Below are positions 5,611-27,897 of a DNA stretch of 32,000 nucleotides, in pieces. The position numbers and the translations under genes are program-made. Below the pieces are notes generated by a model. That model worked only from the letters and a program-made list of their open reading frames with translations. It did no database searches and was not told the DNA's origin. Every line of letters starts with the position of its first letter. Within the stretch, counting starts at the first letter, position 1. Source of the DNA: Acaryochloris marina MBIC11017 (GTDB taxonomy: Bacteria > Cyanobacteriota > Cyanobacteriia > Thermosynechococcales > Thermosynechococcaceae); the NCBI RefSeq assembly GCF_000018105.1, contig NC_009925.1, positions 1,200,001-1,232,000 on the forward strand, read 5' to 3'.

Positions 5611-5685
5611 AGTCGAGAGAAATTGTTGTAATAGGTTAAACCGCTTCTTGGGATTGGCCCTTCAAAAACCAATGTTGATTGCTGC

Positions 5686-11434: not shown

Positions 11435-12263
11435 ATGAAGTGTCCAGAGTGTGGATACTGTTGGCGAATGTGCTACAAGTATGAAATTTAAAATACTACG
11501 CACGGAACAACCTACAGAATTTCGTTTCACTTATGATCCTGTAATACACGTGTAGTTGCATTTGTAATACTTTCGCCGACAGTATCAGTGTGGTGGTCAA
11601 CATATCCATAAGAATGGGCATCGTCGAGGTAAACAAAATCATATTTGTGTGGCCTGTGGACGACAGTTTCTTTCAACTTACTCAAAGCGTGGATACAGTG
11701 ATTGGACGAAACGACTCTGCCTGAGAATGTATGTCAACGGAATGGGGTTACAAGGTATCGAACGAGTCATAGGCGTTGCTCATACCACTGTGATCCGTTG
11801 GGTTCAACAAGTTGGAGTTCTATTACCCGATGCTTATGACCCTGACGATATCCCCCAGGTAGGAGAATTAGATGAACTCGAAACCTTCGTGGGCCAAAAA
11901 CGCAACAAGGTCTGGATTTGGACTGTGGTGGATCATTTTCACCCCGGCATTCTAGGCTGGGTTGTGGGTGACCATAGTGCTGAGACCTTTCGACCGTTAT
12001 GGCAAGCAATCGTCTGTTGGCAATGTTTTTTCTGGGTCAGTGATGGCAATCCCGTCTATCCAGGCTTTATCCCAGAGGGTGACCAGATTGTTAGCAAGAC
12101 CTACATGACACGAGTAGAGGGAGAAAACACGCGTTTACGACATTACTTGGCACGGCTCCATCGCAAGACTTTATGTTATTCAAAGTCGGTGGACATGCTC
12201 AAGCATTCAATTCGACTATTGATCCACTATCTCAAGTTTGGTGAAGTACCTATTCCTGCGTGA
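11435..12263 (+). pseudogene. IS1-family transposase gene, disrupted in its zinc-finger coding region
   Basis: ATG 11435 gives MKCPECG and then runs into the insert, with a stop after 18 codons. Removing 11455-11593 restores MKCPECGGQHIHKNGHRRGKQNHICVACGRQFLSTYSKRGYS... continuous with track ORF 11649-12263. The stop TGA (12261-12263) abuts the right IR. Confidence 0.85.
11455..11586. mobile_element. MITE-like non-autonomous element (132 bp) inside the IS1 transposase gene
   Basis: It is flanked by a 7-bp direct repeat AGTGTGG (11448-11454 and 11587-11593). Its terminal inverted repeats are (G)ATACTGTTGGCGAATGTGCTACAAGT and the complement of ACAAATGTAATACTTTCGCCGACAGTAT(C), matching at 22 of 27 positions. 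It has no coding capacity. The boundary is ambiguous by 1 nt (6-bp TSD if the G/C pair belongs to the TIR). Confidence 0.7.
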
Positions 12264-12544: not shown

Positions 12545-14200
12545 TTATTTCTTAGACTTTAAAGCCAATAAAAACTCGCTGGTCAAGGTGGATGAATCCG
12601 TTTGGGCATTCGCCATGCCGATACCTCGAATAGAGTTAAGAATAGCTTTTACCTCTGGTGTATTAAACTCACTATTGTTCGCTACATCGGGATAACTAAA
12701 CAATAGTTGATTCACCTCCTCCATATTGACGTAGAAATAACCTGAGTCTTGGGGTAAAGATTGCGTCACAGATTGGAAAATATCGCTCTTGTCTAGAGTC
12801 TTTTTAGGGCGATTCGCCATGACTTGAGCAATAGGTTGGCCCACGGTGACAAACATAGTGTTGTCATCTAGCCATCCCCGCCCAATCACGTTTTGTCCTA
12901 AGGGGGGAACTTGCCAATGGGTGACCTTCACGTCGCCAATTTTACTGTTGGAGATTTTTATATTATTTTGCTTGGCAAAGGTATCCAGCTTGGCAAACGT
13001 GGCGGTAGCTTTTTTGCGATCGCTCGTATCAAACACCAACGCACCCCCAAACCCAACGGGTTCGAGAATACCTTCCTTACTGGGAATCAGGGCAAACCCC
13101 ACCTCTCCATCCATCCAGCTAATAATGTCTCGATCCAAATCTAGCCGAGTGGTTTGACGCACATAGATTCGGATTGCATCGATGGCAGAGGCAAATTCAG
13201 GAATGTTCGAAAAATGGTCAACATAAAGCGGCCACTGTTTCTTGATATTTCCTCCATTCGCAGACAACAACGTATTGGCAGGAAAGCGAGAGATAATCTT
13301 GCCGGGAATGGGGTCAAATTGACCTTTCCACAGCTTCGGATCGAATTGAGTCACACTTCTGAAGCGAATCCCCTGATCGTCAATTCCCATGCCCACGGAA
13401 ACTGATTTCACCTGCTTGAACCGCTCTTCAAGTTCTGGCGGTATCTCAGGCGCATCTGCTTCATCCAAGATATCCAGTTGATCAATAATTTCGGCATAGT
13501 CTAGGATATGGAACTGGGCCACTGAATTTTCTAATTCGAGGGATTGAAAGGCTTTAGCCGACACTCCAGTTGTCCCTAAAGAAGGAGCCCCCTGAGAGGC
13601 ATCAATGGCTTTTTTGACCGTCGTTACTTGATCCGATGCTGCCAGGTGGTTCTCCAGAATCGCAACGTATCCGGGGTTATCCGACTTTTCGGCCCCTATT
13701 TTGACAATCTCTACCCCTTTATATTGCTTGGTTTCTTGGATATTTAAGCTATCCTCTTTTTTCACCTTGTTATAGAAATCTAAGGCTGCGAGTTTATCCT
13801 TAATGCCAATCACCACTAAGAACTCGGGCGTCCCACCCGACTTCTCCTCCGGTAAAAATGCCATCATGGCGTTCCCCAGCCAGGGTTTGAAATCTTTGCT
13901 GTAGCTCAAATTATCTTCAGCTAATTCCTGATCCAGTTCCTTGATTAAGGTGTCTAAGCCCTCTTTATAGAGTTTCTGAGCCTCTGAAGTCCCAAACTGT
14001 TCTAGCTTCTGCCAGGCTTCAAAATCGAGATTAATGGAGGCCGTCATCCATGCTTCATCGGGTACTATTTTTGCGATCGCTAACGTACTGGTTCCTTGCT
14101 GAGCCGGAATCACCTTGAGATACAGGTAGGCTGCCACACCGCCTAAGCCCAGCACACCAGCAATTATTCCCGGAATAATGTACTTCCACTTTTTGGCCAT
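12545..14200 (-). CDS. Conserved cyanobacterial membrane-anchored protein, DUF3352-like
   Basis: Long ORF (track 12545-14227). The likely start is the second Met (MAKKWKYIIPGIIAGVLGLGGVAAYLYL), which gives an N-terminal TM anchor followed by a large soluble domain. Size and layout match what I recall for DUF3352. Family assignment is unverified. Confidence 0.6.
   Translation of the reverse strand: MAKKWKYIIPGIIAGVLGLGGVAAYLYLKVIPAQQGTSTLAIAKIVPDEAWMTASINLDFEAWQKLEQFGTSEAQKLYKEGLDTLIKELDQELAEDNLSYSKDFKPWLGNAMMAFLPEEKSGGTPEFLVVIGIKDKLAALDFYNKVKKEDSLNIQETKQYKGVEIVKIGAEKSDNPGYVAILENHLAASDQVTTVKKAIDASQGAPSLGTTGVSAKAFQSLELENSVAQFHILDYAEIIDQLDILDEADAPEIPPELEERFKQVKSVSVGMGIDDQGIRFRSVTQFDPKLWKGQFDPIPGKIISRFPANTLLSANGGNIKKQWPLYVDHFSNIPEFASAIDAIRIYVRQTTRLDLDRDIISWMDGEVGFALIPSKEGILEPVGFGGALVFDTSDRKKATATFAKLDTFAKQNNIKISNSKIGDVKVTHWQVPPLGQNVIGRGWLDDNTMFVTVGQPIAQVMANRPKKTLDKSDIFQSVTQSLPQDSGYFYVNMEEVNQLLFSYPDVANNSEFNTPEVKAILNSIRGIGMANAQTDSSTLTSEFLLALKSKK
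13016..13023. repeat. HIP1 octamer GCGATCGC
   Basis: Exact match. Confidence 0.9.
14073..14080. repeat. HIP1 octamer GCGATCGC
   Basis: Exact match. Confidence 0.9.
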
Positions 14201-14300
14201 GATGATACCCCACACCTGATTTTCCATTGACGGACTCTAGCTAAAGTCTTCCCGTTTCATCAGAGTGATGAACAGTTATTTCTACAGGTTCGTCTTTCAC

Positions 14301-15660
14301 TCATCTGGAAACGACGACATCTTGAAGCGGAGCATCGTTTAAATAGCCTTGCCACATCTGTTGAAAAGCACTTTCCAAAGAAGCCACAAATTGCTCCACC
14401 TGAAAGAGGGCAGGGTAAGTCTCCGGGGACTGTAGTTGTCGCTTTAACCCATTGCGGATCTCAGCTAATTCCGCTGGATGAGTGGCTAAGTGAATGGCTC
14501 GCTGTTCATAGTCGGCAACGCTTTTACAGATCAGTGACTCTAATCCCGCCGCCGCACAGATACTCGCCCCCATGCGTGACGCATTTGTGGGGCCGGGACA
14601 AGTGAGCATTGGTAATCCTGACCAGCAGGTCGCCACTGCCGTTGAACCGGCGTTATAGACAAAGGTATCTAAATACAAATCCGCCAGCCCATATCGAGCC
14701 AGGTAATCTTCATGGGCGATTTTAGGGGCAAAAACAAGTCGGTCTGGGTTCACGCCCCGCTGCTTGGCTTCAGTCCGCAAGTTACCCATCACCGTTTCAG
14801 CCCCCTCTATTAGCCAAAGAACGGAGTCCGGCACCTGCTGCAAAATTCGCATCCAGACATCAAATAGATCCGGCGTAATTTTGTAGTGAGAATTGAAGCA
14901 GCAGAACACAAACCCCGACTCAGGCACCCCAAACTCAGCACGGGTCATGGGGCGATCAGAGATCGCCAAGGGAGACCCCACAAACGCATGGGGGAGATAG
15001 ACAATTTTTTCCGTGTAGGACTGGGCAATTTCAGGCGAAATCAGCCACTGATCCGCCAGGGCATATTGGATAAACTCCGCCCCCATCGTATCGGGATAGC
15101 CTAACCATTGAGCTTGAATCGGCGCAGGCTGCAGAGACAGGACAGACGCCGCATTGCCAATGGTATAGCCCGCCAGATCCACCAAAATCTGAATCCCATC
15201 GTCGTAGATACGCTGGGCGGTCTGCTCGGTTGAGAGCGGAGATAAGTCAACAAAGGCATCACAGCCCGTTTGAATCTGTTGGGTGATGTGATCTTCGACA
15301 TCAACGGTCGTATAAGCAACAATCTCATACTGATCGCGGTTGTGGTGGGGAAACAGGTCAACCACCAAACGCCCAACGGCATGATCGCGCAGGTCAGGAG
15401 AAAGATAGCCAATCCGTAGTTTAGGGGTTGCTTTACAAGGATGGGCAAAGGTCAGAGAAGACCTCAGTTGGGCAACGGCTCGTTGGGCATTTTGAGCTTG
15501 GTTGCGGGCCGCCGCTTGATGCAGCTCTAACGGAAAATTAAAGGTGCTGAGAACAAAGGGATTGGGAGTATATTTCGCCGTAAAAGACTCCGCAATCATC
15601 TGCTGTAAGCGTTGCACCTGAGCCTCATAATCCTGCCAGTTACACAGCTTGATCTTGACT
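14301..15660 (-). other. Domain: canonical GT41 (O-GlcNAc-transferase-like) catalytic module
   Basis: LRIGYLSPDLRDHAVGRLV, ILVDLAGYT, QAQWLGYPDTMG, FVFCCFNSHYKITPDLFDVWMRIL and LDTFVYNAGSTAVATCWSGLPMLT are typical of TPR-GT41 proteins. Confidence 0.8.
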
Positions 15661-18600
15661 AAGCTGATAAAGAACCAGAGGGAATGGGTTTCGGGGTTCC
15701 CCTGCAAGGCCCGTTCGTAACAGGCTAAAGCCTCTTCTGACTTGCCCTGATATTCAAAAATTTGCCCCAAGCTAAAATGGGCTTCCGTATGCTGGGGTTC
15801 AGCCACAACCACTTTTTGATAATGCTCAATGGCAACGGCCATACGCCGCTGTTCTTTATAGAGGTTAGCCAAATTCAAATGGGCTGGGACGTAGTCCGGT
15901 TTTAGTTGTAAGGCTCGATAAAAACCAGCTTTAGCCCGTTCTGGCTGCTCATTCAGTTGCCAAATACTCGCCAGATTAGAATGGGCTTCGGCAAAGTTCG
16001 TGTTGAGCTGAAGGGCTTGTTGATAGCAGGCTTCGGCCTCTTGAATATTGCCCTGATTTTGGAGCAAGGTGCCCAAGTTGTTATAAGCGCCCCAATGATT
16101 CGGGTAGAGGTGAATCACTTCCCGTAAACAAGCTTCTGCTTCCGTGAGTTTGTTCTCTTTCTTCAGCTGTCGGCTGCGCTCAAATAAGGCTTGCACCGTG
16201 GAGGGGGCCGCTAGGGTGGTAGCAGGAGTAGCCGAAGGTGAGGACGGTTCAAACCCATTCAAAGCGAGGGGATCATTTTTAAGTAAATGTTGCTGTAAGA
16301 GGTCATCAATGGGTTTTAAGGTACTTTCATCTTCTAAGAACACCTGCCCCACATATTCCAACCCTTGTCTTGCGGCAGGGTAGGGGTTCTGCAGAAAAAT
16401 CTCATCATGAACCATACAGGAGGACTGGGTTTTGGGATAAATCTGAGTCGCCAAGAAATGCTGATCAATGCCGTACCGCAACCCCAGATCGGCTTGGTCA
16501 ACCAGATGCTGCTCTACCAGTAGTTCCATGTCCAAGACATTGCCTTTGACCCCCCACATTCCTGCCAGCATGGGCACATTATGACGGGGATGATCGCGCA
16601 TAATATGGTACTTCTGGGGACTTTGGAGCCAAGCCTCCACCGCAGCTTTTTCTCGCAGATTCAGGCGAGAGTCGGCATCCCGACAAATCAACACCTCAAC
16701 ATCTGGATCAGCAGCGGGCAAGAACCGAGCAAATGACATCTTCCAGCCTCTATCTCCGTCTAGCTGAATGACTTCAACGTGGGAGCGGGCCTTTAATTGG
16801 TTAACCACCTCAGAGGGAACGGTCTGGTCCACATAGAAGCGACAAATCCAGCCGGGGTAGAGGGTCGGAGCTAAGTCTGCATTCTTAAGGGCACCCGTGG
16901 TGTACTTCGGGTTGGCACCCCACAGACTAAAGGCAATGACCCGTTGGCGCCGCCGGGAAGCGGACGGCGGATGCTCTTCTTCCAGCTCGGCAAACGAGGA
17001 GGGGAGCAACTGCTGTAATAAAGTCCCCACTTGAGCACCATAGGCTGGGCTATCCATAAAAGCAGGATTGGCGGCCATTTTTTGTTGAATCAGCGTCCGA
17101 TACTGCTGCCGTCGAGTCGAATCTTGGCCTAGCTGAATAGCCAATTCAACGTATCCCTGTTCATCTGTGGCAATTAAATCAGTTAAGTCAATTGATTCCA
17201 GTAAAGCTGGACCTTGCCGGGAGCGGAGCGAATGTCCGGCTTGAGTAACGACGGGAAGTCCTACTTCTAAGGGATCTAGAAGAGAGGTAACCCCCGTAAA
17301 GGGATAAGCATCGAGATAAACATCCGCAATCTGCAGCAGTTGTTTGACTTGTTCTCGGTTGGGAATCGGATCTTGAATGATCAGTCGGGAGGGGTCAATC
17401 CCGTCGCCTGCAAACAATGCAGCCATATGGTTACGAAAGGCTGAAACGGGATAGTGATGACTCCAAGCGGAGAAGGGATAGAGCAAAAGGACTGAGTTAG
17501 GGACTGCGGCTAATATCTGGGTCCATGTGATTCTTAGCTCGGGTATCAGTTTGAAAAAGTTAGCCCCGGACACAAAGACCACGGCATCATCAGCAATATT
17601 CAAATCGCGGCGGTAGTAGGAGGCGGCTGTCGGCTGCTGGGCACTAGGAGGAAAACGGTAGCAACAGGAGGGGCCAGCCCAAGTGACCAGCTTCTCACTA
17701 TATTGGCTCTGAAAGGTCTCAGCAGGGGTAGTAAGTTCCCCTGAGAGGTAGTAATCAATATTATTGATGCCAGAGGTGACGGGGGACGAATTAGCAGAAA
17801 CCTGAACTCGGGCCAGCCGATACATCGCTAATCGAGCAGTGGACTTATTGCCAACCGCAATATTGATCCCAAACAGCAAGATATCTAGGTCGTCATTCCG
17901 AATCCGTTGAACGGATTCCGGTAGGTCTTGAGGTAGGAGTACAAACTGATCGCATCGACTCCGGCAATAGGCTTCTAGAGGGTGATCTTGGCTAGACTCG
18001 GCGTAGAGAATGATTTCAAACTGCTGCCGATCTAAATGCTCATAGAATGGCAGGGTGGAAAAGGTCTCCGAATGAGGACTATAGGCTTGATTGAGAACAC
18101 CCAGGCGAATTTTTGATCGGTGCGAAGGTCTAGGTGAACCGTGCTGATGCACGGTCATTCCGCGATGTTCTAAACTGAATTCCGTAATCGCAGCCCACTT
18201 GATAAAGGTGTCTTTCAGGTTGAGATCGTTAAAGTAGATAGGCGCAAATACCGCTTCGGCGGCGACCGCAGCCACGCTTTGCCAAGAGGCTGAGTTGAGA
18301 TTTTGATGAATCTTGCGATGGATAAAGGTAAACCAATGGTTTAAATATTGGGCATACTGCTCTGACTCCCCCACGGCTTGAAAAAATAGAGGGACGGCCT
18401 GCATATAGGCGAGATAGTCATTCACCAACCACGATGGAATCGTAATCGGTTCAAACCAGCGCTCTGGAAGCTGATAGGCGGCGCGGTACGGCATCAGAGC
18501 GAGGAGTGACTGCACGGGATGGGTCGTCAATGCTGTCATCAGCGGTTCAATAAAGGCCTGCTCTGCAGCGGTGAGGGGTTCATAGCGCAGGTCATGGTTC

Positions 18601-19898
18601 ACCAGGGTTCGGTGAGCTTGGCCCAGTTCCCCACCATAGGCTGCTTCTAACTGTTCTAGGGGGAGGTTCAACCACTGCTGGACCAGGTGTTGGCGATGTT
18701 GTCTAAGGTCAGCAAGTTCGGGTTGATCCTCAGGTTGGGTCAACGTGGTTGGCGGCTTGGGAGGGGCCGGGCTAACCGTGGGGTTCGGTTGCGGTGGGTC
18801 CGGGACCTGCGGTCCTAGGGTAATCAGTTGGGCAATTTCTTCGCTTTGGAACCCTAAGGCCATCGGGCGCTGCACCTGGGGCAAAATTTGGACATCGTAG
18901 AGTTCGGTGATGATGCCTTCAAACCGCAACCAATGTTCAATAGCTCCGGTATTGAGGTTAATCACCATCAGCCCACAGCGCGGGCTGGCATCCTTGGCTT
19001 TGAGTATGTCATCTAGGGGTAGGCCTGAGAAGGTTTTATCGCCATTGCGAGGTTGCGATAAACCGACAATGGCAAAATCCCCCCAAAAGGCCAGCCCTCT
19101 AAGGTAACCGGGGCAGAAAGCAATGGGTTCAAAGGTGCCGGTTCGTAAATCGACGTAGCCTAATTCTCCTCGACCGGAGTTGAGGAGCCAGAGGCGGTCC
19201 CGATACCAGCGAGGGGAGTGGGGCATAGAAAAGCCAGTCGCCACAATCTCGTTAGTGGACAAGTCCATCACAAGGCCGCCATCCTGACGGCGATCTCGCC
19301 AGCCATCAATGATGTCGGAGCGGCTGACGGCGGTAACGTAGCGGGGTTGGCCGTTTACAGCGGCTAATCCGTTCAGGTGGCATCGATCTTCGTTGATGAT
19401 GCGGGAAATAAAGGGCGGTTTCCAGAGGGGCTGGCAACTGTAGTGATCGCTAACTGTAGCGATGCAGTTGAGGAGGGTACTGACAAACACAAAGGGGACA
19501 GGGAGGGTTTCCTGCCAGGGAGTACCATCAATCCCTCGCTCGACTTCGACAATATCGTGGATATCTAAATCACCGGTGGTATAGCCTATTCGTGGGATGT
19601 AGAGCTTGTCGTAGCCGTTGTGTTGCTGTTGGCCAGATAAGACATTATCAAATCGCCAAATCTGATATTTAGAACTGAGGTAGAGGCGATCGGTCGTGGT
19701 GTAAAGGCCCATAGCCCGGTCAAAGATACGTTCAAACCCAGAGATAGTTCTACCGTCGGGACTAACGCCCAATAGCATCAGGCGACTGGTTTGGTAGGTA
19801 GTGCAGGCAATACTAATTTTCTGTTGTGCTAACCAGGGAATAAACTGACGATCTGCGGTGATGTCGTGACCTGAGGAAGAAGCGGTGCGTTTCGTCAT
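14301..19898 (-). CDS. Giant multidomain glycosyltransferase (TIGR03032/DUF4915-like + GT41-like + DXD GT-A-like + TPR + GT41)
   Basis: Single uninterrupted 1,865-codon ORF. The domain reading is given in the sub-features below. Confidence 0.9.
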   Translation of the reverse strand: MTKRTASSSGHDITADRQFIPWLAQQKISIACTTYQTSRLMLLGVSPDGRTISGFERIFDRAMGLYTTTDRLYLSSKYQIWRFDNVLSGQQQHNGYDKLYIPRIGYTTGDLDIHDIVEVERGIDGTPWQETLPVPFVFVSTLLNCIATVSDHYSCQPLWKPPFISRIINEDRCHLNGLAAVNGQPRYVTAVSRSDIIDGWRDRRQDGGLVMDLSTNEIVATGFSMPHSPRWYRDRLWLLNSGRGELGYVDLRTGTFEPIAFCPGYLRGLAFWGDFAIVGLSQPRNGDKTFSGLPLDDILKAKDASPRCGLMVINLNTGAIEHWLRFEGIITELYDVQILPQVQRPMALGFQSEEIAQLITLGPQVPDPPQPNPTVSPAPPKPPTTLTQPEDQPELADLRQHRQHLVQQWLNLPLEQLEAAYGGELGQAHRTLVNHDLRYEPLTAAEQAFIEPLMTALTTHPVQSLLALMPYRAAYQLPERWFEPITIPSWLVNDYLAYMQAVPLFFQAVGESEQYAQYLNHWFTFIHRKIHQNLNSASWQSVAAVAAEAVFAPIYFNDLNLKDTFIKWAAITEFSLEHRGMTVHQHGSPRPSHRSKIRLGVLNQAYSPHSETFSTLPFYEHLDRQQFEIILYAESSQDHPLEAYCRSRCDQFVLLPQDLPESVQRIRNDDLDILLFGINIAVGNKSTARLAMYRLARVQVSANSSPVTSGINNIDYYLSGELTTPAETFQSQYSEKLVTWAGPSCCYRFPPSAQQPTAASYYRRDLNIADDAVVFVSGANFFKLIPELRITWTQILAAVPNSVLLLYPFSAWSHHYPVSAFRNHMAALFAGDGIDPSRLIIQDPIPNREQVKQLLQIADVYLDAYPFTGVTSLLDPLEVGLPVVTQAGHSLRSRQGPALLESIDLTDLIATDEQGYVELAIQLGQDSTRRQQYRTLIQQKMAANPAFMDSPAYGAQVGTLLQQLLPSSFAELEEEHPPSASRRRQRVIAFSLWGANPKYTTGALKNADLAPTLYPGWICRFYVDQTVPSEVVNQLKARSHVEVIQLDGDRGWKMSFARFLPAADPDVEVLICRDADSRLNLREKAAVEAWLQSPQKYHIMRDHPRHNVPMLAGMWGVKGNVLDMELLVEQHLVDQADLGLRYGIDQHFLATQIYPKTQSSCMVHDEIFLQNPYPAARQGLEYVGQVFLEDESTLKPIDDLLQQHLLKNDPLALNGFEPSSPSATPATTLAAPSTVQALFERSRQLKKENKLTEAEACLREVIHLYPNHWGAYNNLGTLLQNQGNIQEAEACYQQALQLNTNFAEAHSNLASIWQLNEQPERAKAGFYRALQLKPDYVPAHLNLANLYKEQRRMAVAIEHYQKVVVAEPQHTEAHFSLGQIFEYQGKSEEALACYERALQGNPETHSLWFFISLVKIKLCNWQDYEAQVQRLQQMIAESFTAKYTPNPFVLSTFNFPLELHQAAARNQAQNAQRAVAQLRSSLTFAHPCKATPKLRIGYLSPDLRDHAVGRLVVDLFPHHNRDQYEIVAYTTVDVEDHITQQIQTGCDAFVDLSPLSTEQTAQRIYDDGIQILVDLAGYTIGNAASVLSLQPAPIQAQWLGYPDTMGAEFIQYALADQWLISPEIAQSYTEKIVYLPHAFVGSPLAISDRPMTRAEFGVPESGFVFCCFNSHYKITPDLFDVWMRILQQVPDSVLWLIEGAETVMGNLRTEAKQRGVNPDRLVFAPKIAHEDYLARYGLADLYLDTFVYNAGSTAVATCWSGLPMLTCPGPTNASRMGASICAAAGLESLICKSVADYEQRAIHLATHPAELAEIRNGLKRQLQSPETYPALFQVEQFVASLESAFQQMWQGYLNDAPLQDVVVSR
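15700..16196 (-). other. Domain: TPR repeats (about 4-5)
   Basis: 34-aa periodic helices with the W/Y-G-A-Y/F-A-P pattern (AYNNLGTLLQNQGNIQEAEACYQQALQLNTNFAEAHSNLASIW...). Confidence 0.8.
16326..16956 (-). other. Domain: compact DXD-containing GT-A-like module (aa ~980-1190), approximate bounds
   Basis: RVIAFSLWGANPKYTTGALKNADLAPTLYPGWICRFYVD ... VLICRDADSRL (DXD-like) ... MRDHPRH..PMLAGMWG. It resembles an uncharacterised nucleotide-sugar transferase family. Confidence 0.45.
17010..18113 (-). other. Domain: first GT41 (OGT/SPINDLY-like) catalytic-type module (aa ~595-960), approximate bounds
   Basis: IRLGVLNQAYSPHSETF...ILLFGINIAVGNKSTARLAMYRLARVQVS...VVFVSGANFFKLIPELRITWTQIL...LDAYPFTGVTSLLDPLEVGLPVVT parallels the second GT41 module of the same protein position by position. 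Confidence 0.55.
18815..19898 (-). other. Domain: TIGR03032 / DUF4915-type domain of unknown function (aa ~1-360), approximate bounds
   Basis: The motifs HSPRWYRDRLWLLNSGRGELGYVD, CPGYLRGLAFWGDFAIVGLS and GLMVINLNTGAIEHWLRFEG..ELYDV match the invariant motifs I recall for this uncharacterised family. It is followed by a Pro-rich linker, PQVPDPPQPNPTVSPAPPKPP (~18720-18815). Confidence 0.6.
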
Positions 19899-20533
19899 TG
19901 CATTCTGAGTTCAGGAGATATCTGCATTACAGCATTAATTTCTCCATAGTTTGCCCTTTGTCTCAGCTAAATTTTTGCTTCCAAGCCATTAAGAGATCTG
20001 TGCTAAGAAACTTTTCTTGCCCGTAGCCCTATGGGGAACTGGTTGGCTATCCCGAGGAGATAAGTCTATCTGATCATATAGATGTCCGTTTTATGGGAGT
20101 GAGGATCTGCGGTTATGGGGCGAGCAAGATTTCTAGTTGATCTAGAGTGGGCAATAGTGAAACATCCTATCCACAGGCTAAATATGCAATCTCAATTGAG
20201 TGTTTAAGATATGTACATTTTCATGGGCAAGAAAATATACTTTAGCTGTATGAAAGATCTCTTCACTTGTCCATACTAGGTTTAGCCCTAACCTTGTTGG
20301 GGCAGGCCTATCTTTATATCTACACCATAGTTCCAGCTCTTCTTCATCATTGATGGTGGGCTGAACAATATTCAAACACTGGATTGGCAACCGCTCTTAA
20401 TCGCATTTGAACCATACAGCTCTTAGGCTGATGACTTGTGAAGGCTCCCTAAAGAAGGAGCTGAAGCAACTCATGAGTCTTGTTCGCTATGGGTGGAAAT
20501 TAGCTGCTACACATTCATCACGTCGTCCCTAAA

Positions 20534-23500
20534 ATGCTCTCTCAGTCCCCAACCCCCTTGTCCTCCGCCTGCCAGACTTTACAGCGTCTCGTTATTATTG
20601 ACCCCACAATTGATAAACCTCAGCATTTGATTGATGGTGTTCTGCCCGGTACAAGGGTGGTAGTGCTGGACCCTGAGCGAGACAGTATCCCCCAAGTTAC
20701 GCAGGCATTGCAAACGCATGGGCCGATTGCAGAGGTGCATTTAGTCAGTCACGGGGCACCTGGTCAAATCCAGTGGGGCAATTGTTGGCTAACGCTGGCA
20801 AACTTAGGGCAATATGCGGTTGAGCTACAGCTCTGGGGAGATCTTTTAGGGGAAAAGGCAACGGTCTTTGTCTATGGATGTCAGGTGGCTGCTGGCGAAG
20901 TGGGACAGCGATTTATTCGACGACTAGGGCAACTGCTAGGGACTTCGATTGCTGCCAATGAGAATTTGACTGGAAGTACTGTAATGGGGGGGGATTGGGA
21001 ACTTTCCTATGGATTGTCCCCGATATTCTTATCTCACCGTTTATCCGCTCTTTTGCCGTTTACGACCACAACGCTCAACACTTATCCTGCTCACCTAGCT
21101 GCGGACTTTAGTGCACAAACCACCTTTGCGACTGGAGATGCCCCATCCTCTGTCAGCGTGGGAGACTTTAACGGCGATAGCCACGCTGACTTGGTGACGG
21201 TAAACTTCTTGAACAACAACGTTTCCGTTCTTTTTGGGGATGGTTCCGGTGGATTCTCTAGCCAAACCACCTTTGCAACGGGATACTCCTCTCTCTCTGC
21301 CAGCGTAGGAGACTTTAATGGCGACGGCCATGCTGATTTGGTGACGGCCAACGGCAGTGGCAACAATATCTCCGTTTTTTTAGGAGATGGCTCGGGCGGG
21401 TTCTCTAGCCCAACTACTTTTGCCGCAGGAAGCATCCCTATCTCCGTCACTGTGGGTGATTTTAATGGCGATAGCCATGCCGACCTGGCGGTGGCAAACA
21501 CTATTAGCCATAACATCTCCGTTTTCTTAGGGAATGGCTCTGGTGGGTTCTCTAGCCAAACTACCTTCGCCGTCGGAGATAGACCTAGCTCTGTGACCGT
21601 GGGTGACTTTAATGGCGATAGCCATGCCGACCTAGTGACGACCAACGGCACTAGCGACAACGTTTCTGTTCTATTAGGGGATGGCTCAGGTGGATTCTCT
21701 AGCCAAACCACCTTTGCCGCAGGGGATAGTCCTTCCTCCGTCACCGTGGGTGATTTTAATGGCGATAGCCATGCCGACCTGGTGACGACCAACGGCACTA
21801 GCGACAACGTTTCTGTTCTGTTAGGGGATGGCTCAGGTGGATTCTCTAGCCAAACCACCTTTGCCGCAGGGAATACCCCTAGATCTATTAAAGTGGGAGA
21901 CTTTAATGGCGACGGCCATGCTGATTTAGTGATGGCGAACCTCAATAGTAACAATGTGTCTGTCCTCGTGGGAGATGGCTCAGGCGGATTCTCTAGCCAA
22001 ACCACCTTTGCGGCTGGGTCTAATCCTACCTCCGTCATCGTCACGGACTTCAATGGTGACAGCCAAGCAGACTTGGTGACAGCGAACGATGGCAACAACG
22101 TCTCTGTCCTTCTGAATACAACACCAATTGACCATACTATTGCTGTGGATGTACCACAGATTATTGAAGGGAATAGCGCTAGCCAAACATTGACTTTTAC
22201 CATCACCCGCCCTGGGTTTACAGCCCAAGCCAGCAGTGTTGATTTCGCTATTGGGGGTTCAGCCACCAACGGCAGCGACTTCAACAATATCGGCGGCACG
22301 AGTGGAGCCACAGCAACGACGGGAACCATCAACTTTGCCGCCGGAGAAACCAGTAAAACCATTACTCTCGATGTCTTAGGAGATACCAGCTTCGAAACTC
22401 TTGAAACTATTGAGGTCTCCCTCAGCAATGCAACCGCAGGCATCAACACCGCGATTAGTGCAGATACCGCCACCAGCACGATCCTTAACGATGAACTCTT
22501 GGTGGACTTTAGTCCCCAAAGCAACTTTGCTGTCGAAGGTGGTCCCGCTGCTGTTAGCGTCGGGGACTTTAATGGCGATAGCCACGCCGACTTAGTAACA
22601 GGAAACTACTCCAACGGCAATATCTCTGTTCTGTTAGGAGATGGGTCTGGGGGATTCTCTAGCCAAACCACCTTTGCAGCTGGCACTGGCCCTTACTCCA
22701 TTACCGTTGGAGATTTCAATGGCGATAGCCAAGCGGACTTAGCGACGGCGAACTATAGCAACGGCAGCGTCTCTGTGCTGCTAGGAGATGGGTCTGGGGG
22801 ATTCTCAGGTCAAACCACCTTCGCAGTTGGCAGTAATTCTCGCTCCATTGCCGTCGGGGATTTTAATGGCGATAGCCACGCCGACTTAGTTGTTGCAAAC
22901 GATAATTCTAACGGTGATGTCTCTGTTCTGTTAGGAGATGGATTAGGCGGATTCTCTAACCAAACCACCTTTGCGGCTGGATCTAATCCTACCTCCGTCA
23001 TCGTCACGGACTTCAATGGCGACAGCCAAGCCGATTTAGTTGTTGCAAACAGTAGCGATGACAATGTCTCTGTTTTGTTAGGGGACGGGTCAGGTGGGTT
23101 CTCGAACCAAATCACCTTTGCCACTGGGAATAATCCATTCACCGTAGCTGCGGGAGATTTCAATGGGGATAGCCAAGCCGATTTAGTTGTTGCAAACGAG
23201 AGTGATAACAATGTCTCCGTTCTGTTAGGAGATGGCTCAGGCGGGTTCTCCAGCCAAGCCACCTTTGCGACTGGAAATCGTCCTAGATTCGTAGTAGTGG
23301 AGGACTTTAATGGCGATGGCCAAGCGGACTTGGTAGCAGCGAGCACCAACAACAACAACGTGTCCGTTCTGCTTGGAGATGGCTCTGGTGGATTTTCTAG
23401 TCCAACTACTTTCTCAGTAGGACATTTGGCTATCTCAAGATCTGTAGCGGACTTTAATGGCGATAGCCAAGCGGATTTGGTGACCACAAGTTTCGGGGGC

Positions 23501-25165
23501 AATAACGTCTCTGTCCTTCTCAATAACTCTGAAATCGATCACAGCATCAGCGTTGACGCTACTCAGATGATTGAGGGAGATAGCGGGAGTCAAACGCTCA
23601 CGTTCACCGTCACTCGTTCTGGGTTTACAGCCCAAGCCAGCAGTATCGATTTCGCTATTGGGGGTTCAGCCACCAACGGCAGCGACTTCAACAATATCGG
23701 CGGTACGAGTGGAGCCACAGCAACGACGGGAACCATCAACTTTGCCGCTGGGGAAACCAGCAAAACCATCACTCTTGATGTACTAGGTGACACTGACTTC
23801 GAGACCTTTGAGACCATTGAGGTGACCCTAAGCAATGACACAGCAGGGGTCAACACCACGATTAGTGCAGATACCGCCACCAGCACAGTCCTTAACGATG
23901 AACTCTTTACGGACTTTAGTGCTCAAACCACCTTTGCAACTGGGGAGAGCCCTTTCTCCGTAGCTGTTGGGGACTTTAATGGCGATAACCAAGCTGACTT
24001 GGTGACGGCAAACTACAATAGCGACAACATTTCGGTCTTTTTAGGGGATGGCTCGGGCGGGTTCTCTGCTCAAACTACCTTCGCGGCAGTAGATGGTCCT
24101 TATTTTGTTACTGTGGCAGACTTCAATGGTGATAGTCATGCTGACTTGGTGACGGCGAACTTAGGTAGCAGCAACGTGTCTATTTTGTTGGGGGATGGCT
24201 CGGGCGGGTTCTCCAGCCAAACCACCTTTGCGGTTGGGTCCTTTCCTAGTTCTGTTACTGTGGCGGACTTCAATGGTGATAGTCATGCTGACTTGGTGAC
24301 GGCCAACCAAGGTAGCAACGACGTCTCCGTTCTGTTAGGGAATGGCTCTGGTGGGTTTTCCAGTCAAACGACCTTTGCCACTGGAGATAGACCTCGCTCC
24401 ATTGCTATGGCCGACTTCAATGGCGACAGTCAGGCTGATTTTATAACCGCCAATCAAGGTAGCGACAACATCTCCGTCTTTTTAGGGGATGGCTCGGGCG
24501 GGTTCTCCAGCCAAACCACCTTTGCCGCTGGAGATAGACCTTACACAGTAGCTGTGGGAGACTTTAACAGCGATAGCCAAGTCGATTTGGTGACAGCCAA
24601 TGCTGGGGACGACAACGTTTCCATTCTGCTAGGGAATGGTTCAGGGGGATTCTCTAGCCAATCTACCTTTGCGGTGGGAGATCGCCCTTTCTCTGTCAGC
24701 ATCGGAGACTTTAATGGTGACGGCCAAGCTGACCTAGTGACGGCGGACAATATTAGCAACAACGTCTCCGTTCTCTTAGGGAACGGTTCTGGCGGTTTCT
24801 CTAGTCCAATCACCTTTGCCACTGGGGTAAATCCCCCTTCTGTAACCGTAGGTGACTTTAATGGTGATGGCCTAGACGAGATAGTGGTGGCAAACTTCAG
24901 TAGCAACAGCCTCTCTGTCCTCAGCGCCAACACCACACTGGCCTCTTTAGACGGCTCCGGCAATCTAGTGATCACTGACCGTTCCAACTCTAAAGACGAT
25001 ACCCTTACCCTCACCAGCGATGGCAGCAACATCACCCTTAGTGATCCAAACAATCTGCTCAACCATGCCATCTCAGGAGCTACAGGCAATGGCACCAACA
25101 CCCTTACCATCCCTAATGCACTAGTGCTTCGCCACAGTGATTATGACAGGATAGTTTGGGGATAG
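20534..25165 (+). CDS. N-terminal fragment as currently translatable (1,543 aa): DUF4347-like domain, 3 x 7 FG-GAP blades, 2 Calx-beta domains
   Basis: Track ORF. The last 14 codons (VLRHSDYDRIVWG) are read from the IS end. No N-terminal signal peptide is evident. Confidence 0.85.
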   Translation: MLSQSPTPLSSACQTLQRLVIIDPTIDKPQHLIDGVLPGTRVVVLDPERDSIPQVTQALQTHGPIAEVHLVSHGAPGQIQWGNCWLTLANLGQYAVELQLWGDLLGEKATVFVYGCQVAAGEVGQRFIRRLGQLLGTSIAANENLTGSTVMGGDWELSYGLSPIFLSHRLSALLPFTTTTLNTYPAHLAADFSAQTTFATGDAPSSVSVGDFNGDSHADLVTVNFLNNNVSVLFGDGSGGFSSQTTFATGYSSLSASVGDFNGDGHADLVTANGSGNNISVFLGDGSGGFSSPTTFAAGSIPISVTVGDFNGDSHADLAVANTISHNISVFLGNGSGGFSSQTTFAVGDRPSSVTVGDFNGDSHADLVTTNGTSDNVSVLLGDGSGGFSSQTTFAAGDSPSSVTVGDFNGDSHADLVTTNGTSDNVSVLLGDGSGGFSSQTTFAAGNTPRSIKVGDFNGDGHADLVMANLNSNNVSVLVGDGSGGFSSQTTFAAGSNPTSVIVTDFNGDSQADLVTANDGNNVSVLLNTTPIDHTIAVDVPQIIEGNSASQTLTFTITRPGFTAQASSVDFAIGGSATNGSDFNNIGGTSGATATTGTINFAAGETSKTITLDVLGDTSFETLETIEVSLSNATAGINTAISADTATSTILNDELLVDFSPQSNFAVEGGPAAVSVGDFNGDSHADLVTGNYSNGNISVLLGDGSGGFSSQTTFAAGTGPYSITVGDFNGDSQADLATANYSNGSVSVLLGDGSGGFSGQTTFAVGSNSRSIAVGDFNGDSHADLVVANDNSNGDVSVLLGDGLGGFSNQTTFAAGSNPTSVIVTDFNGDSQADLVVANSSDDNVSVLLGDGSGGFSNQITFATGNNPFTVAAGDFNGDSQADLVVANESDNNVSVLLGDGSGGFSSQATFATGNRPRFVVVEDFNGDGQADLVAASTNNNNVSVLLGDGSGGFSSPTTFSVGHLAISRSVADFNGDSQADLVTTSFGGNNVSVLLNNSEIDHSISVDATQMIEGDSGSQTLTFTVTRSGFTAQASSIDFAIGGSATNGSDFNNIGGTSGATATTGTINFAAGETSKTITLDVLGDTDFETFETIEVTLSNDTAGVNTTISADTATSTVLNDELFTDFSAQTTFATGESPFSVAVGDFNGDNQADLVTANYNSDNISVFLGDGSGGFSAQTTFAAVDGPYFVTVADFNGDSHADLVTANLGSSNVSILLGDGSGGFSSQTTFAVGSFPSSVTVADFNGDSHADLVTANQGSNDVSVLLGNGSGGFSSQTTFATGDRPRSIAMADFNGDSQADFITANQGSDNISVFLGDGSGGFSSQTTFAAGDRPYTVAVGDFNSDSQVDLVTANAGDDNVSILLGNGSGGFSSQSTFAVGDRPFSVSIGDFNGDGQADLVTADNISNNVSVLLGNGSGGFSSPITFATGVNPPSVTVGDFNGDGLDEIVVANFSSNSLSVLSANTTLASLDGSGNLVITDRSNSKDDTLTLTSDGSNITLSDPNNLLNHAISGATGNGTNTLTIPNALVLRHSDYDRIVWG
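20582..21015 (+). other. Domain: DUF4347-like N-terminal domain, approximate bounds
   Basis: LVIIDPTIDKPQHLIDGVLPGTRVVVLDPERDSIPQVTQALQTHGPIAEVHLVSHGAPGQIQWG...VFVYGCQVAAGEVGQRFIRRLGQLLGTSIAANENLTGSTVMGGDWEL matches the pattern I recall for DUF4347, found at the N-terminus of giant cyanobacterial repeat proteins. Confidence 0.6.
21100..22125 (+). repeat. FG-GAP/VCBS-type repeat block 1: seven blades of about 49 aa (147 bp)
   Basis: There are seven units of FSSQTTFA.G..P.SV.VGDFNGD(S/G)(H/Q)ADLV..N...NNVSVLLGDGSGG. Blades 4 and 5 share 115 of 117 nt (21608-21724 vs 21755-21871). Confidence 0.85.
22125..22500 (+). other. Domain: Calx-beta 1, approximate bounds
   Basis: EGNSASQTLTFTITRPG..AQASSVDFAIGGSATNGSDF...TINFAAGETSKTITLDVLGD..FE..ETIEVSLSN is the Calx-beta pattern. 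Confidence 0.7.
22500..23525 (+). repeat. FG-GAP/VCBS-type repeat block 2: seven blades
   Basis: It has the same unit as block 1. It is offset by 1,407 bp from block 1, measured from the Calx-beta landmarks at 22217 and 23624. Confidence 0.85.
23530..23905 (+). other. Domain: Calx-beta 2, approximate bounds
   Basis: Near-copy of Calx-beta 1. A 56-nt run and a 44-nt run are identical between the copies, separated by a single C/T difference (22241-22341 vs 23648-23748). Confidence 0.7.
23905..24935 (+). repeat. FG-GAP/VCBS-type repeat block 3: seven blades
   Basis: Seven further units follow. The last (FATGVNPPSVTVGDFNGDGLDEIVVANFSSNSLSVL) is degenerate, as expected for a closing blade. Confidence 0.8.
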
Positions 25166-25839
25166 AGTCGGCTGAGTTTAGTTCGTGCATCATCCACCGT
25201 AAACAACCAATTAACCGTTGCCTTATCATGGTTCCGCCTTTTTTCCCATGCAGTGACCTCGTACCGGAGTTGTTCAATATCAGGAATCCGCCGATTTAAG
25301 CATTGCCTCGAAAGGGCAGAGAACTCAAACTCAATCATATTGAGCCAACTGCCATGTTTTGGGGTGTAGTGAAACTGAATACGCTTGAGAATCCGCAAGG
25401 CTTCATCTGGATTGAAGGTTTTGTAAAGTGCTGCGGGAGAATGGGTATTGAGATTGTCCAAAACAACATGTAGCTTGTCAGCCTGGGGAAACAGACCATC
25501 CACTAGATATTGCATGCAAAGTGCAAAATCTTCGCTTTTGCGATGCTCAGTCACCTTCAAATGTCGCCAACTTTTGAGCGGTTGAAAAAAGCCAAATATA
25601 TTACAAGTGCCCTTCCGCTCATATTCATGGTCGTAGCGTTGAGGACGACCGGGCTTCGGTGGACGGGGCACCCGGGTTTCGCCAATCAGTTGGCAAGGCC
25701 GTTCATCAAAACAAACAACAGGCTCATCAGGATCGTAGGGTTGGGCATACCAATCTAGAACGTTCTCCATCCGCCAAACAAAGTCTGCGCCTACAGTAGA
25801 AAAACACCACTGCTCTTTTAGCCAAGGCTTAAGCTGTTT
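25141..25839 (-). CDS. IS630-family transposase, DDE catalytic part (orfB frame, open upstream to the A7 run)
   Basis: The track ORF 25141-25770 (VCFDERPCQL, VVLDNLNTHS, HYTPKHGSWLNMIEFEFS) extends without stops upstream as KQLKPWLKEQWCFSTVGADFVWR, back to the slippery run. Confidence 0.85.
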   Translation of the reverse strand, partial: KQLKPWLKEQWCFSTVGADFVWRMENVLDWYAQPYDPDEPVVCFDERPCQLIGETRVPRPPKPGRPQRYDHEYERKGTCNIFGFFQPLKSWRHLKVTEHRKSEDFALCMQYLVDGLFPQADKLHVVLDNLNTHSPAALYKTFNPDEALRILKRIQFHYTPKHGSWLNMIEFEFSALSRQCLNRRIPDIEQLRYEVTAWEKRRNHDKATVNWLFTVDDARTKLSRLYPQTILS

Positions 25840-26258
25840 TTTTCGAGCGTACGTCGCACAGTTTCATCCGATAGGCTTTCGACGACTTTAAGTTCAACCA
25901 GCCGTTCTGCCAATAGCTGCATGGTCCACCGGCAACAACCGGTTGGTGGGTCGCTACAAGCTGTCGCAATTAGCAAGGCCTCTGCTTTGCTATCGAGCTT
26001 CTTTTGCCCTCCTGGTCTGGGACGCTCATTGAGGGCAAATTCCACACCACCTTCAACAAATTTCTGGCGAGTACGATGCACGGTAGAGATGCCTGCATTG
26101 AGCATTTGAGTAATGGTATCGTCTTTGTGTCCCTCATCTGCCAACATCAAAATCTGGGCTCGTTTCATTTTTCGCGCTGACAGGGTTCTACGTCGGGTGA
26201 GTTGTATCAGCTCACTGCGTTCTTCAGGCGTTAGCGTCACAATATATTTGTCAGGCAT
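25818..26258 (-). CDS. IS630-family transposase, N-terminal HTH part (orfA)
   Basis: 146-aa ORF with helix-turn-helix regions (RAQILMLADEGHKDDTITQMLNAGISTVHRTRQKF; CRWTMQLLAERLV). It ends shortly after an A7 run. Confidence 0.85.
   Translation of the reverse strand: MPDKYIVTLTPEERSELIQLTRRRTLSARKMKRAQILMLADEGHKDDTITQMLNAGISTVHRTRQKFVEGGVEFALNERPRPGGQKKLDSKAEALLIATACSDPPTGCCRWTMQLLAERLVELKVVESLSDETVRRTLEKNSLSLG
25837..25843 (-). promoter_or_regulatory. A7 slippery run (T7 on the plus strand) joining orfA and orfB by a -1 shift
   Basis: The minus strand reads GAA AAA AAC in frame A. A -1 slip gives GAA AAA AAA CAG CTT AAG CCT TGG, i.e. ...TLEKKQLKPWLKEQW..., the junction expected for a full-length IS630-type transposase. 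Confidence 0.55.
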
Positions 26259-26356
26259 GATTAGTTGGCTAAAAACAGCTAGATTGTTGCTAGCTTACCT
26301 ATCCAATTCAGTGTGGTCGAGCACTAGTTACAGGTTCCCAAATCCTGATCAATACA

Positions 26357-26512
26357 GGTGGGGGGAACGATACCGTCTCTGGTAGCAATCTAGCCGAAAC
26401 CATCAATGGTGGAGCGGGCAACGATAGACTCAACGGCAATAACGGTAATGACACCCTCTCAGGCGGCCTAGGAGCCGATACCCTTACAGGCGGTGCTGGC
26501 GATGATGTGCTG
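26357..26512 (+). repeat. RTX (GGxGxDxUx) calcium-binding nonapeptide block 1
   Basis: [52 protein letters not shown]. Confidence 0.8.
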
Positions 26513-26620
26513 ATTGATGAGGGCAGCGGCGAAGCTGAGAACCCAGACGCTGCCGCCTTTGGCCCTGCCACCACTGCCACTACTGCCTTCGCTGGCACCA
26601 GCGGCTTTACCAATGAGGAC

Positions 26621-27545
26621 CAATTCCCCCGCCGATTAGCTGATGTCAATGGCGATGGTCGAGCCGATATTGTTGGCTTTGGCAATAGTGCCGTGGTTGT
26701 GGCTCTCGGGCAAGCAGATGGCACCTTTGGTACAGCCTTCGTTGCCGACAATGTGTTTACCCGCCTCAATGGCTTTTCCAGTGAAGACCAATTCCCCCGC
26801 CGATTAGCTGATGTCAATGGCGATGGTCGAGCCGATATTATTGGCTTTGGTAATAGTGCCGTGGCTGTGGCTCTTGGACAAGCAGATGGCACCTTTGGTA
26901 CAGCCTTCGTTGCCGACAATGTGTTTACCCGCCTCAATGGCTTTTCCAGTGAAGACCAATTCCCCCGCCGATTAGCTGATGTCAATGGCGATGGTCGAGC
27001 CGATATTATTGGCTTTGGTAATAGTGCCGTGGCTGTGGCTCTTGGACAAGCAGATGGCACCTTTGGTGCAGCCTTCGTTGCCGACAATGTGTTTACCCGC
27101 CTCAATGGCTTTTCCAGTGAAGACCAATTCCCCCGCCAATTAGCTGATGTCAATGGCGATGGTCGAGCCGATATTATTGGCTTTGGTAATAGTGCCGTGG
27201 CTGTGGCTCTCGGACAAGCAGATGGCACCTTTGGTGCAGCCTTCGTTGCCGATAATGTATTTACCCGCCTGAATGGCTTTAGCAGTGAGGATCTATTCTC
27301 TCGCCAGGTAGCGGATGTGAATGGCGATGGCCGAGCCGATATTATCGGCTTTGGTAATAGCGCCGTAGCTGTAGCCCTAGGCCAAGCAGATGGCACCTTT
27401 GGTACAGCCACAGTGGTCAACCAAAGCTTCGCCCGACTCGGAGGCTTTCCAACATCATCTGCCACACCGCGACTCGTGGCAGATGTGGATGGGGATAACC
27501 GAGCCGATATCGTTGGTTTTGGCAATGATCAGGTAACCATTGCTA
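26621..27545 (+). repeat. Tandem 168-bp (56-aa) repeat array, about 5.5 units, FG-GAP-like
   Basis: Unit phase markers lie at 26621, 26789, 26957, 27125, 27293 and 27461. The unit is [56 protein letters not shown]. Regions 26761-26928 and 26929-27096 differ at one position (26900 A vs 27068 G). Confidence 0.9.
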
Positions 27546-27571
27546 CCGCGCTGGCCGTCAATGACAGTCTG

Positions 27572-27662
27572 ATTGGCGGTACAGGAAACGACCGTCTCGT
27601 TGGTGGAACCGGCAATGATCTGCTCACAGGCGGCGCTGATGCCGACACGTTTGTCTTTGATG
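27572..27662 (+). repeat. RTX nonapeptide block 2
   Basis: [30 protein letters not shown] is followed by a non-repetitive acidic/hydrophobic C-terminal tail. This layout is typical of type-1-secretion substrates. Confidence 0.7.
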
Positions 27663-27897
27663 CCAACGCAGCGTTGGGTGGCATTGATCAGATTACAGAT
27701 TTCAATGCAGCTCAAGGAGACATCCTAGAGATTGACCAAGCAGCATTTGGCATTATGGGGCTGGCCGATATTTCCTTCAATGCGACGAGTGGGGAATTAT
27801 TCGTCACCGGCACCCATAACAACACCCTGGCTATCCTTACCGGGCAATCTGGGTTTGATATCAATACTCATGTCAACCTAGTCTAAGGATGCATTAC

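Follow-up and report, generated by a model that had tools for sequence, protein, structure and literature searches.

Two giant genes that diverge from a shared intergenic region in the cyanobacterium Acaryochloris marina MBIC11017 appear to be one instance of a recurring module for the cytoplasmic modification, most likely O-glycosylation, of FG-GAP exoproteins before their export, a reading suggested by sequence comparison to which we assign a probability of roughly 0.55. The genes lie in a stretch of 32,000 nucleotides (contig NC_009925.1, positions 1,200,001 to 1,232,000; hereafter the window, whose own numbering is used throughout); one encodes a multidomain glycosyltransferase (GT) that begins with a DUF4915/TIGR03032 domain and the other a repeat protein composed of FG-GAP propellers, Calx-beta domains and RTX repeats. 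Seen across genomes, the deeper conserved unit is DUF4915 together with an FG-GAP propeller exoprotein, with GT41 and other transferases as frequent fused or adjacent members. The whole analysis was carried out in silico.

The enzyme gene (14301-19898, minus strand; 1,865 amino acids), delimited by its open reading frame (ORF), by Pfam and TIGR03032 matches and by full-length orthologues, and the 5' ORF of the repeat-protein gene (20534-25165, plus strand; 1,543 amino acids in the ORF list) face away from each other across 635 bp (19899-20533), just as an earlier interpretation of the same DNA, made from its letters without database searches (the sequence-only reading), had described. That reading proposed the two as an enzyme-substrate pair and allowed that their proximity might be coincidental; the latter suggestion does not hold up, since the pairing recurs not only in close orthologues but also in distant cyanobacteria and, somewhat altered, in other phyla. 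Comparative genomics finds the TIGR03032-GT fusion repeatedly adjoining DUF4347/FG-GAP/RTX genes, and the non-conserved synteny that was to have spoken against the proposal was not found. The idea of a dedicated pairing is thus borne out as far as conserved adjacency is concerned, but the universal partners turn out to be DUF4915 and FG-GAP propellers, not GT41, RTX or DUF4347.

Among close relatives of the GT, a DUF4347/FG-GAP neighbour is present in all five evaluable lineages. The relative P0005 (73% identity) has a divergent DUF4347/FG-GAP/Calx-beta gene of 3,980-4,260 amino acids 413 bp upstream, and its other flank is entirely different from that of the window; divergent DUF4347/FG-GAP genes that end at a contig edge accompany P0002, P0006 and P0007, and P0008 has a DUF4347/FG-GAP/Hint gene 1.2 kb upstream. 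P0001, whose contigs end 399 bp upstream of the GT gene, stands outside this count. The two closest relatives (loci L005 and L007) have the whole flank in common with the window, but the pair is also kept where the flanks differ (L001). Elsewhere among cyanobacteria, Nostoc punctiforme has an FG-GAP/cadherin/RTX gene 39 bp downstream of a DUF4915-GNAT-GT2-TPR gene, and in Cylindrospermum stagnale PCC 7417 (L096) a DUF4915-TPR-GT41 gene is divergent from an FG-GAP/RTX gene.

Two further arrangements were observed around DUF4347 genes. A Planktothrix locus (L093; CP136572.1, 1-16677) holds a DUF4347-led gene array that ends at a convergent GT41-DUF4915 gene; three of the DUF4347-led genes have FG-GAP and are each followed by a Big_12/RTX ORF, and one DUF4347-led gene is followed by a cadherin-like ORF. 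A single enzyme gene may here act for more than one substrate gene. Microcoleus vaginatus (L092; CP146622.1) has a gene for a JmjC/Cupin_8 (protein hydroxylase-like) protein at 7496-8620, ~1.4 kb upstream of a DUF4347/FG-GAP/Calx-beta/RTX cluster with no DUF4915 within 10 kb, and its product may be an alternative modifying enzyme.

For a view across phyla, an alignment of the DUF4915 domain was scanned against one genome per GTDB species, which gave at least 598 loci; the locus counts below refer to the best 80, a set spanning pairs from cyanobacteria, Planctomycetota, Verrucomicrobiota and Proteobacteria. Contigs are often short in this set, 44 of the 80 loci having at least 3 kb on both sides, and FG-GAP ORFs were detected with a home-built blade profile seeded from the window and checked with Pfam on a sample. 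An FG-GAP ORF lies within 1 kb of the DUF4915 gene in 37/80 loci, and in 21 of the 44 with long flanks. As many as 36 of 50 FG-GAP ORFs fall within 500 bp, which corresponds to 4.8 per 10 kb of flank compared with at most 0.1 per 10 kb beyond 4 kb, a positional enrichment of about 50-fold with the internal distance decay along the flanks as baseline. When every ORF in the 80 loci was clustered all against all, FG-GAP was the sole recurrent neighbour family (44/80 loci), and polysaccharide export genes were not found as conserved neighbours. The FG-GAP gene is usually on the same strand as DUF4915, before or after it, at a spacing of tens of bases or with a 4-bp gap or overlap.

Pfam confirmed FG-GAP or FG-GAP_3 in seven of eight sampled partners, together with RTX, Calx-beta, GEVED or dockerin domains, the eighth (L073) having RTX repeats only; the hosts sampled were Stieleria, Pirellulaceae, Tepidisphaeraceae, Chthoniobacteraceae, Woeseiaceae, Sphingomonadaceae, Xenococcaceae and Okeania. 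Partners typically comprise 7, 14, 28 or 35 blades, and in many of them the first blade stands at the very start, without a signal peptide, and RTX at the end; planctomycete partners have basic N-terminal leaders. DUF4347-type partners are restricted to one clade of the DUF4915 tree, which includes the window, a distribution consistent with co-inheritance of the pair.

The DUF4915 domain of the enzyme (amino acids 18-348; 18855-19847, minus strand), defined by Pfam, alignment and an AlphaFold2 (AF2) model, matches PF16261 with 455 bits against a cutoff of 35 and NCBIfam TIGR03032 with 441.8 bits against 251.5. Matches to the family profile amount to about 5,250 representative clusters at 50% identity, and a full-text literature search found no description of DUF4915/TIGR03032 or of its pairing with FG-GAP genes. 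In most genomes of the 80-locus set DUF4915 is a stand-alone protein of ~360 amino acids whose N-terminus is short and hydrophilic and lacks a signal peptide; neither DUF4915 nor the GT carries membrane segments or signal peptides, and DUF4915 is predicted to be cytoplasmic. Identity is 46-93% among cyanobacterial proteins and 50-58% between cyanobacteria and Planctomycetota or Proteobacteria. The model is a beta-propeller (pLDDT 91.3) for which Foldseek returned generic propellers only (YVTN, YWTD, Kelch; TM-score ~0.5), and a search of PDB sequences with the DUF4915 profile found no relative. Alignment shows the invariant motifs EDRCHLNG, SMPHSPR and FCPG..RG and the invariant residues C162/H163, H216, C251, C297 and H103/D104; compared with the secondary-structure string of the model, these residues would fall where the innermost strand begins in one blade after another, an arrangement that resembles propeller active sites.

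Transferases recur around this family in several forms. TPR-GT41 is fused to DUF4915 in 5/80 loci, and another 10 have it as a gene of its own no more than 1.5 kb away (15/80 in total), the separate genes being often operon-like, with 4-bp spacing or overlap. A census of 62 long DUF4915 representatives found fused GNAT (24/62), TPR (20/62), GT41 (12/62) and GT2 (7/62) domains, and the first homologue search gave further fusions to GT4, to a NodZ/GT11 fucosyltransferase and to a sulfotransferase. In L001, L008 and L011 the GT is flanked by genes for a sugar-nucleotide epimerase/dehydratase or for acyltransferase-3. A gene for adenosine 5'-phosphosulfate (APS) kinase adjoins DUF4915 in five of the 80 loci (L024, L033, L042, L052 and L053), the gene order in L053 being FG-GAP, GT2-TPR-GT41, DUF4915, APS kinase; in the Cylindrospermum locus L096 an APS-kinase gene (13810-14358) stands 2.5 kb from the GT gene. 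Because such genes recur and some DUF4915-GT41 proteins carry a sulfotransferase domain, there are hints that the modification may be sulfated.

Secretion genes also occur beside the pair. In a Sulfuritalea metagenome-assembled genome (L035), genes for HlyD and for an ATP-binding cassette (ABC) protein of the type 1 secretion system (T1SS) kind are divergent from TPR-GT41, DUF4915 and a 35-blade FG-GAP/RTX gene; in L064 and L070 DUF4915 is followed by ABC and HlyD genes, and L067 has HlyD alone. The window itself has no T1SS genes for an ABC or membrane fusion protein according to Pfam searches of its ORFs, in agreement with the sequence-only reading.

From its N-terminus, the enzyme is organised as DUF4915/TIGR03032, a linker, a first GT41 domain (GT41a), an unassigned DxD domain, a TPR array and a second GT41 domain (GT41b), and its full-length orthologues are 66-96% identical. 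Pfam Glyco_transf_41 (PF13844) matches it in four stretches with 391.9 bits against a cutoff of 25, and human OGT aligns to the whole protein with an E-value of 7e-128. GT41b (amino acids 1418-1865; 14304-15647, minus strand) is a canonical OGT-type catalytic domain by alignment to human OGT, and it keeps the equivalents of human His498 and Lys842 ('dlrdHavg'/'DFGNHPTS' and 'fnshyKi'/'FNQLYKI'). Directly before it stands the TPR array (amino acids ~1235-1410; 15669-16196, minus strand), which matches multiple TPR families (TPR_1/2/11/16) and aligns to the TPRs of human OGT. GT41a (amino acids ~600-990; 16929-18101, minus strand) is a divergent second domain that Pfam and PDB sequence matches place near SPINDLY and OGT: the isolated segment scores 117.6 bits with PF13844 and matches the O-fucosyltransferase SPINDLY (7y4i; E 4e-25), OGT (1e-23) and, at merely ~3e-4, the HMW1C-type N-glycosyltransferase (NGT). 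Its His and Lys equivalents appear to be present, as read from the sequence alone. With the NGT equivalog model NF049992 the enzyme scores 41.2 bits against a cutoff of 1000, and it does not classify as NGT-type.

The previous description of a multi-GT enzyme stands for these two GT41 domains; the third putative GT, at amino acids ~990-1215 (16254-16931, minus strand), gave no Pfam match at E<=1 and no meaningful PDB match. This domain of ~225 amino acids is kept in full-length orthologues, with conserved WGANPKY and RDADSR (DxD-like) motifs, and it may be an undescribed GT-A-like transferase, making it a candidate third transferase of the enzyme.

The repeat-protein gene is interrupted by a mobile element. 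Its 5' part (20534-25123, plus strand), assigned by Pfam and by a 7+7+7 blade register, encodes DUF4347 and three seven-bladed FG-GAP_3 propellers; an insertion sequence (IS) of the IS630 family (1,201 bp; 25124-26324, minus strand) follows, recognised by DDE_3 and helix-turn-helix (HTH) ORFs, by inverted repeats and by the reading frame restored on its excision; and the 3' part (26327-27886, plus strand), an in-frame continuation with Pfam matches, encodes RTX, second-type blades, RTX again and a C-terminal tail of the T1SS type. The ends of the element are 31-nt imperfect terminal inverted repeats (25120-25150 and 26298-26328) with a TA duplication (25122-3 and 26325-6), and deleting 25124-26326 yields a single open frame from 20534 to 27886 of 2,049 amino acids, in line with the roughly 2,050 codons anticipated earlier. 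Since the insertion removes the RTX/secretion end, the putative substrate gene is broken in this strain and the module probably non-functional here.

Pfam found DUF4347, 20 FG-GAP_3 stretches and two Calx-beta domains in the 5' ORF, a Calx-beta domain following each of the first two propellers, and FG-GAP_3 together with HemolysinCabind (RTX, PF00353; 32.6 bits against a cutoff of 23) in the 3' ORF (26507-27886). Immediately 3' of the IS come four perfect RTX nonapeptides, the restored protein shows runs of GGxGxDxLx, and its C-terminus holds a second RTX block and a tail of ~70 amino acids; the RTX blocks and C-terminal tail of the sequence-only reading are therefore both present. Judged by eye from the sequence, the N-terminus of the protein (MLSQSPTPLSSACQTLQRLVIID...) has no hydrophobic, signal-peptide-like stretch. 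After the first RTX block, six second-type FG-GAP blades of ~56 amino acids (26600-27600; amino acids ~1640-1960 of the restored protein) are nearly identical to one another, which suggests a recent tandem duplication.

The N-terminal blades repeat every 49 residues, and the 21 of them make up three groups of seven (an example blade peptide is LGDGSGGFSSQTTFA). A Ser/Thr-rich stretch, GGFS(S/N/A/G)(Q/P)xTF, had been ascribed to every blade; it occurs in 18 of the 21 and is absent from the seventh blade of each propeller. We considered this stretch as a partner-specific feature and set the idea aside. The blades of other partners differ (GGFgtATNF and ENFTLRTIS, and the classical FG-GAP DGSNGF.ING), and the stretch is a lineage version of an ordinary VCBS blade. 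N-glycosylation at sequons was another candidate, with N-[VI]-S in 17/21 blades and 49 sequons versus 33 +/- 5 in shuffles; it was dropped because neither GT41 domain is NGT-like and the sequon lies within the ordinary 'nvSVLLG' VCBS strand.

The DUF4347 domain (amino acids 19-187; 20588-21094, plus strand) is predicted from alignments, AF2 and Foldseek to have a caspase-like fold, which makes it a candidate relative of the clan CD (caspase/legumain-like) cysteine peptidases. Its invariants are H63-G64 and Y104-G105-C106, and the model (pLDDT 91.8) is caspase/legumain-like, the best Foldseek match being Tce1 (9qpe_G; TM-score 0.56), a Pseudomonas aeruginosa type VI secretion system (T6SS) effector, followed by legumain and caspases at ~0.4. 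PA0256, a T6SS effector of P. aeruginosa, has been described as a DUF4347 protein (PMC8262886). A homologue search with the single DUF4347 sequence gave two matches, and a profile search gave more, mostly contig-end fragments. It might act as an autoprocessing cysteine protease, or else at the N-terminus of a T1SS adhesin as its retention plug.

Cytoplasmic modification before type 1 secretion is the most economical account of the module, because GT41 enzymes have protein acceptors, DUF4915 is predicted to be cytoplasmic and the substrate would be unfolded in that compartment. OGT, SPINDLY and NGT act in the cytoplasm or nucleus, and these characterised GT41 members among our search matches all have protein acceptors. 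RTX and FG-GAP domains depend on calcium for folding and remain unfolded at cytoplasmic calcium levels (see PMC3034196). What the sequences establish is the linkage and fusion of the genes, the identity of their domains and the lack of signal peptides on DUF4915 proteins; we infer the identity of the substrate (the FG-GAP protein), the nature of the modification (O-glycosylation) and the role of DUF4915, as a recognition module or an enzyme. The RTX/FG-GAP protein would stay unfolded in the cytoplasm because its folding needs calcium, DUF4915 and/or the TPR array would capture its repeats, and the GT41 domains would transfer sugar to blade Ser/Thr; the modification would be elaborated by the accessory transferases of relatives (GT2, GT4, fucosyl-, sulfo- and acetyl-), and the modified protein would exit by type 1 secretion and fold outside as a glycosylated surface or adhesin protein. 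A bolder version, in which DUF4915 is a new cytoplasmic enzyme class or an obligatory specificity subunit of a broad pathway for modifying FG-GAP exoproteins, and in which these exoproteins are the natural substrates of a large clade of bacterial OGT-like GT41 enzymes, has in our view a real chance, though it is less likely than not.

Several observations weigh against the reading that we favour. No GT41 gene lies within 1.5 kb in 22 of the 37 adjacent DUF4915/FG-GAP pairs, and GT41 glycosylation may therefore not be the core function; because of its very high conservation across phyla and its invariant Cys, His and Asp residues, DUF4915 looks like an enzyme in its own right rather than an adaptor; about half of the 80 loci have no FG-GAP neighbour, partly owing to short contigs; one of three sampled DUF4347 genes on long contigs has a DUF4915-GT41 gene within 10 kb; and other partners do not keep the Ser/Thr-rich blade stretch in this form. 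The first two of these points support the main rival reading, which holds that DUF4915 is the key enzyme or chaperone and glycosylation optional: DUF4915 would be the true partner of FG-GAP proteins with another function, as a new post-translational modifying enzyme on calcium-loop repeats, in a logic like that of HlyC with HlyA, or as a cytoplasmic holdase or secretion chaperone that would keep the propeller unfolded, and the GT41, GNAT and GT2 fusions would be secondary. The tight operon spacing of DUF4915 with the FG-GAP gene and the modelled placement of its invariant residues, as in a propeller active site, agree with such a role; however, neither fold nor sequence reveals a catalytic homologue of DUF4915, and repeated fusion to several transferase classes fits a pathway or targeting module better than it does a chaperone. 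We regard this explanation as unlikely, though serious.

Less probable still is that enzyme and FG-GAP protein make no contact, the transferases building a surface glycan or polysaccharide that the FG-GAP propeller, as a secreted lectin or adhesin, binds or organises, with co-regulation as the only bond between them. A Wzt-type polysaccharide ABC transporter is found in some loci, fusions to GT2, GT4, acetyl- and sulfotransferase domains are typical of polysaccharide pathways, and sugar-nucleotide epimerase/dehydratase genes adjoin the GT in L008 and L011. Yet a polysaccharide pathway fits poorly with a GT41 family whose characterised members among our matches all act on proteins, with the lack of membrane segments and signal peptides in DUF4915 and the GT, and with FG-GAP as the only conserved neighbour, polysaccharide export genes not being conserved. 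That the adjacency is coincidental, or mere synteny inherited among close relatives, would accord with the flank that L005 and L007 have in common with the window, but it is very hard to reconcile with the pair kept amid the differing flanks of L001, with its occurrence and positional enrichment across phyla and with the confinement of DUF4347-type partners to one DUF4915 clade, and we give it almost no credence.

Modification of a large exported protein by an enzyme encoded next to it has precedents. In the HMW1C-HMW1 system of Haemophilus influenzae (and likewise ApNGT and EtpC-EtpA), a dedicated cytoplasmic GT41 enzyme is encoded beside the adhesin that it modifies, and the analogy drawn in the sequence-only reading with dedicated glycosyltransferase-adhesin pairs is reasonable, given that the GT41 family consists of cytoplasmic enzymes that glycosylate proteins. 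Common to both is a GT41 enzyme gene adjoining the gene for a giant secreted repeat or adhesin protein, with modification in the cytoplasm before export as the proposed course here; the GT41 domains of the present enzyme, however, are OGT/SPINDLY-like with TPRs instead of NGT-like, export probably goes through type 1 secretion (RTX) and not two-partner secretion, the universally conserved DUF4915 propeller is an additional component, and the substrate class is that of FG-GAP propellers. In HlyC-HlyA, an RTX toxin is activated in the cytoplasm, before T1SS export, by an acyltransferase from the adjacent gene. There too the gene for a cytoplasmic modifier adjoins that for an RTX substrate of a T1SS, and GNAT acyltransferase domains are found fused to many DUF4915 proteins, but the enzyme families differ, there is no link to acyl-ACP, and an FG-GAP propeller takes the place of the pore-forming domain.

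Eukaryotic-type OGT/SPINDLY, the bacterial homologue XcOGT and the Ogt of Synechococcus elongatus resemble the enzyme in combining TPRs with GT41 and in conserving the catalytic His and Lys; they are single-GT41 proteins that lack DUF4915, a second GT41 and the DxD domain, and the portions of the literature available to us did not describe a dedicated neighbouring substrate gene for them. S. elongatus Ogt is needed for glycosylation of the pilin PilA, which sets a precedent, within cyanobacteria, for GT41 action on an exported protein (PMC9306852). The kind of product to be expected of a DUF4915/FG-GAP module is represented by the cyanobacterial RTX proteins SwmA and oscillin, which the available part of the source reports as glycoproteins and calcium-binding exoproteins (PMC3034196); that part gives them no FG-GAP/DUF4347 architecture and names no glycosyltransferases, and we know of no link to DUF4915. 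Dedicated glycosyltransferase-adhesin pairs are thus already known, and the DUF4915/FG-GAP pairing points to a hitherto undescribed system that probably modifies surface proteins of this class ahead of export.

In the 635-bp region between the two giant genes, a block of ~60 nt directly upstream of the GT start codon (about 19899-19965; …GAGACAAAGGGCAAACTATGGAGAAAT.AATGCTGTAATGCAG…) is kept in L005 and L007 and partly in L001, the remainder having diverged in all three according to alignment; the block could be a leader or promoter element. Promoter and terminator scans of the region gave results at chance level, promoter-like sites being no commoner than in shuffles, and Rfam and tRNA searches of it gave no match. 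The rest of the window contains a suf operon, regulators, a glutathione S-transferase (GST), an IS1 fragment, DUF3352, an AMP-binding enzyme and a short-chain dehydrogenase/reductase (SDR). At its left end, sufS-sufD-sufC-sufB with a divergent HTH regulator (sufR-like) occupy 644-6348 as housekeeping context. Between the DUF3352 and glyoxalase genes, a fragment of an IS1-family transposase (11649-12263) and a pentapeptide-repeat fragment (10940-11368) mark 10940-12263 as the second mobile-element scar of the window; L005 and L007 have a Ser/Thr protein kinase gene at the equivalent position.

To our knowledge, little has been established about the substrates on which bacterial OGT-like (GT41) enzymes naturally act, and the gene linkage described here nominates a concrete and experimentally accessible substrate class for them. 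It also supplies a working hypothesis for DUF4915/TIGR03032 as a family of wide occurrence, and it suggests that modifying proteins ahead of type 1 secretion is a commoner practice than the acylation of RTX toxins alone would indicate. For cyanobacteria and other environmental bacteria, we propose that this module represents a route by which their giant calcium-dependent surface proteins may become glycoproteins.

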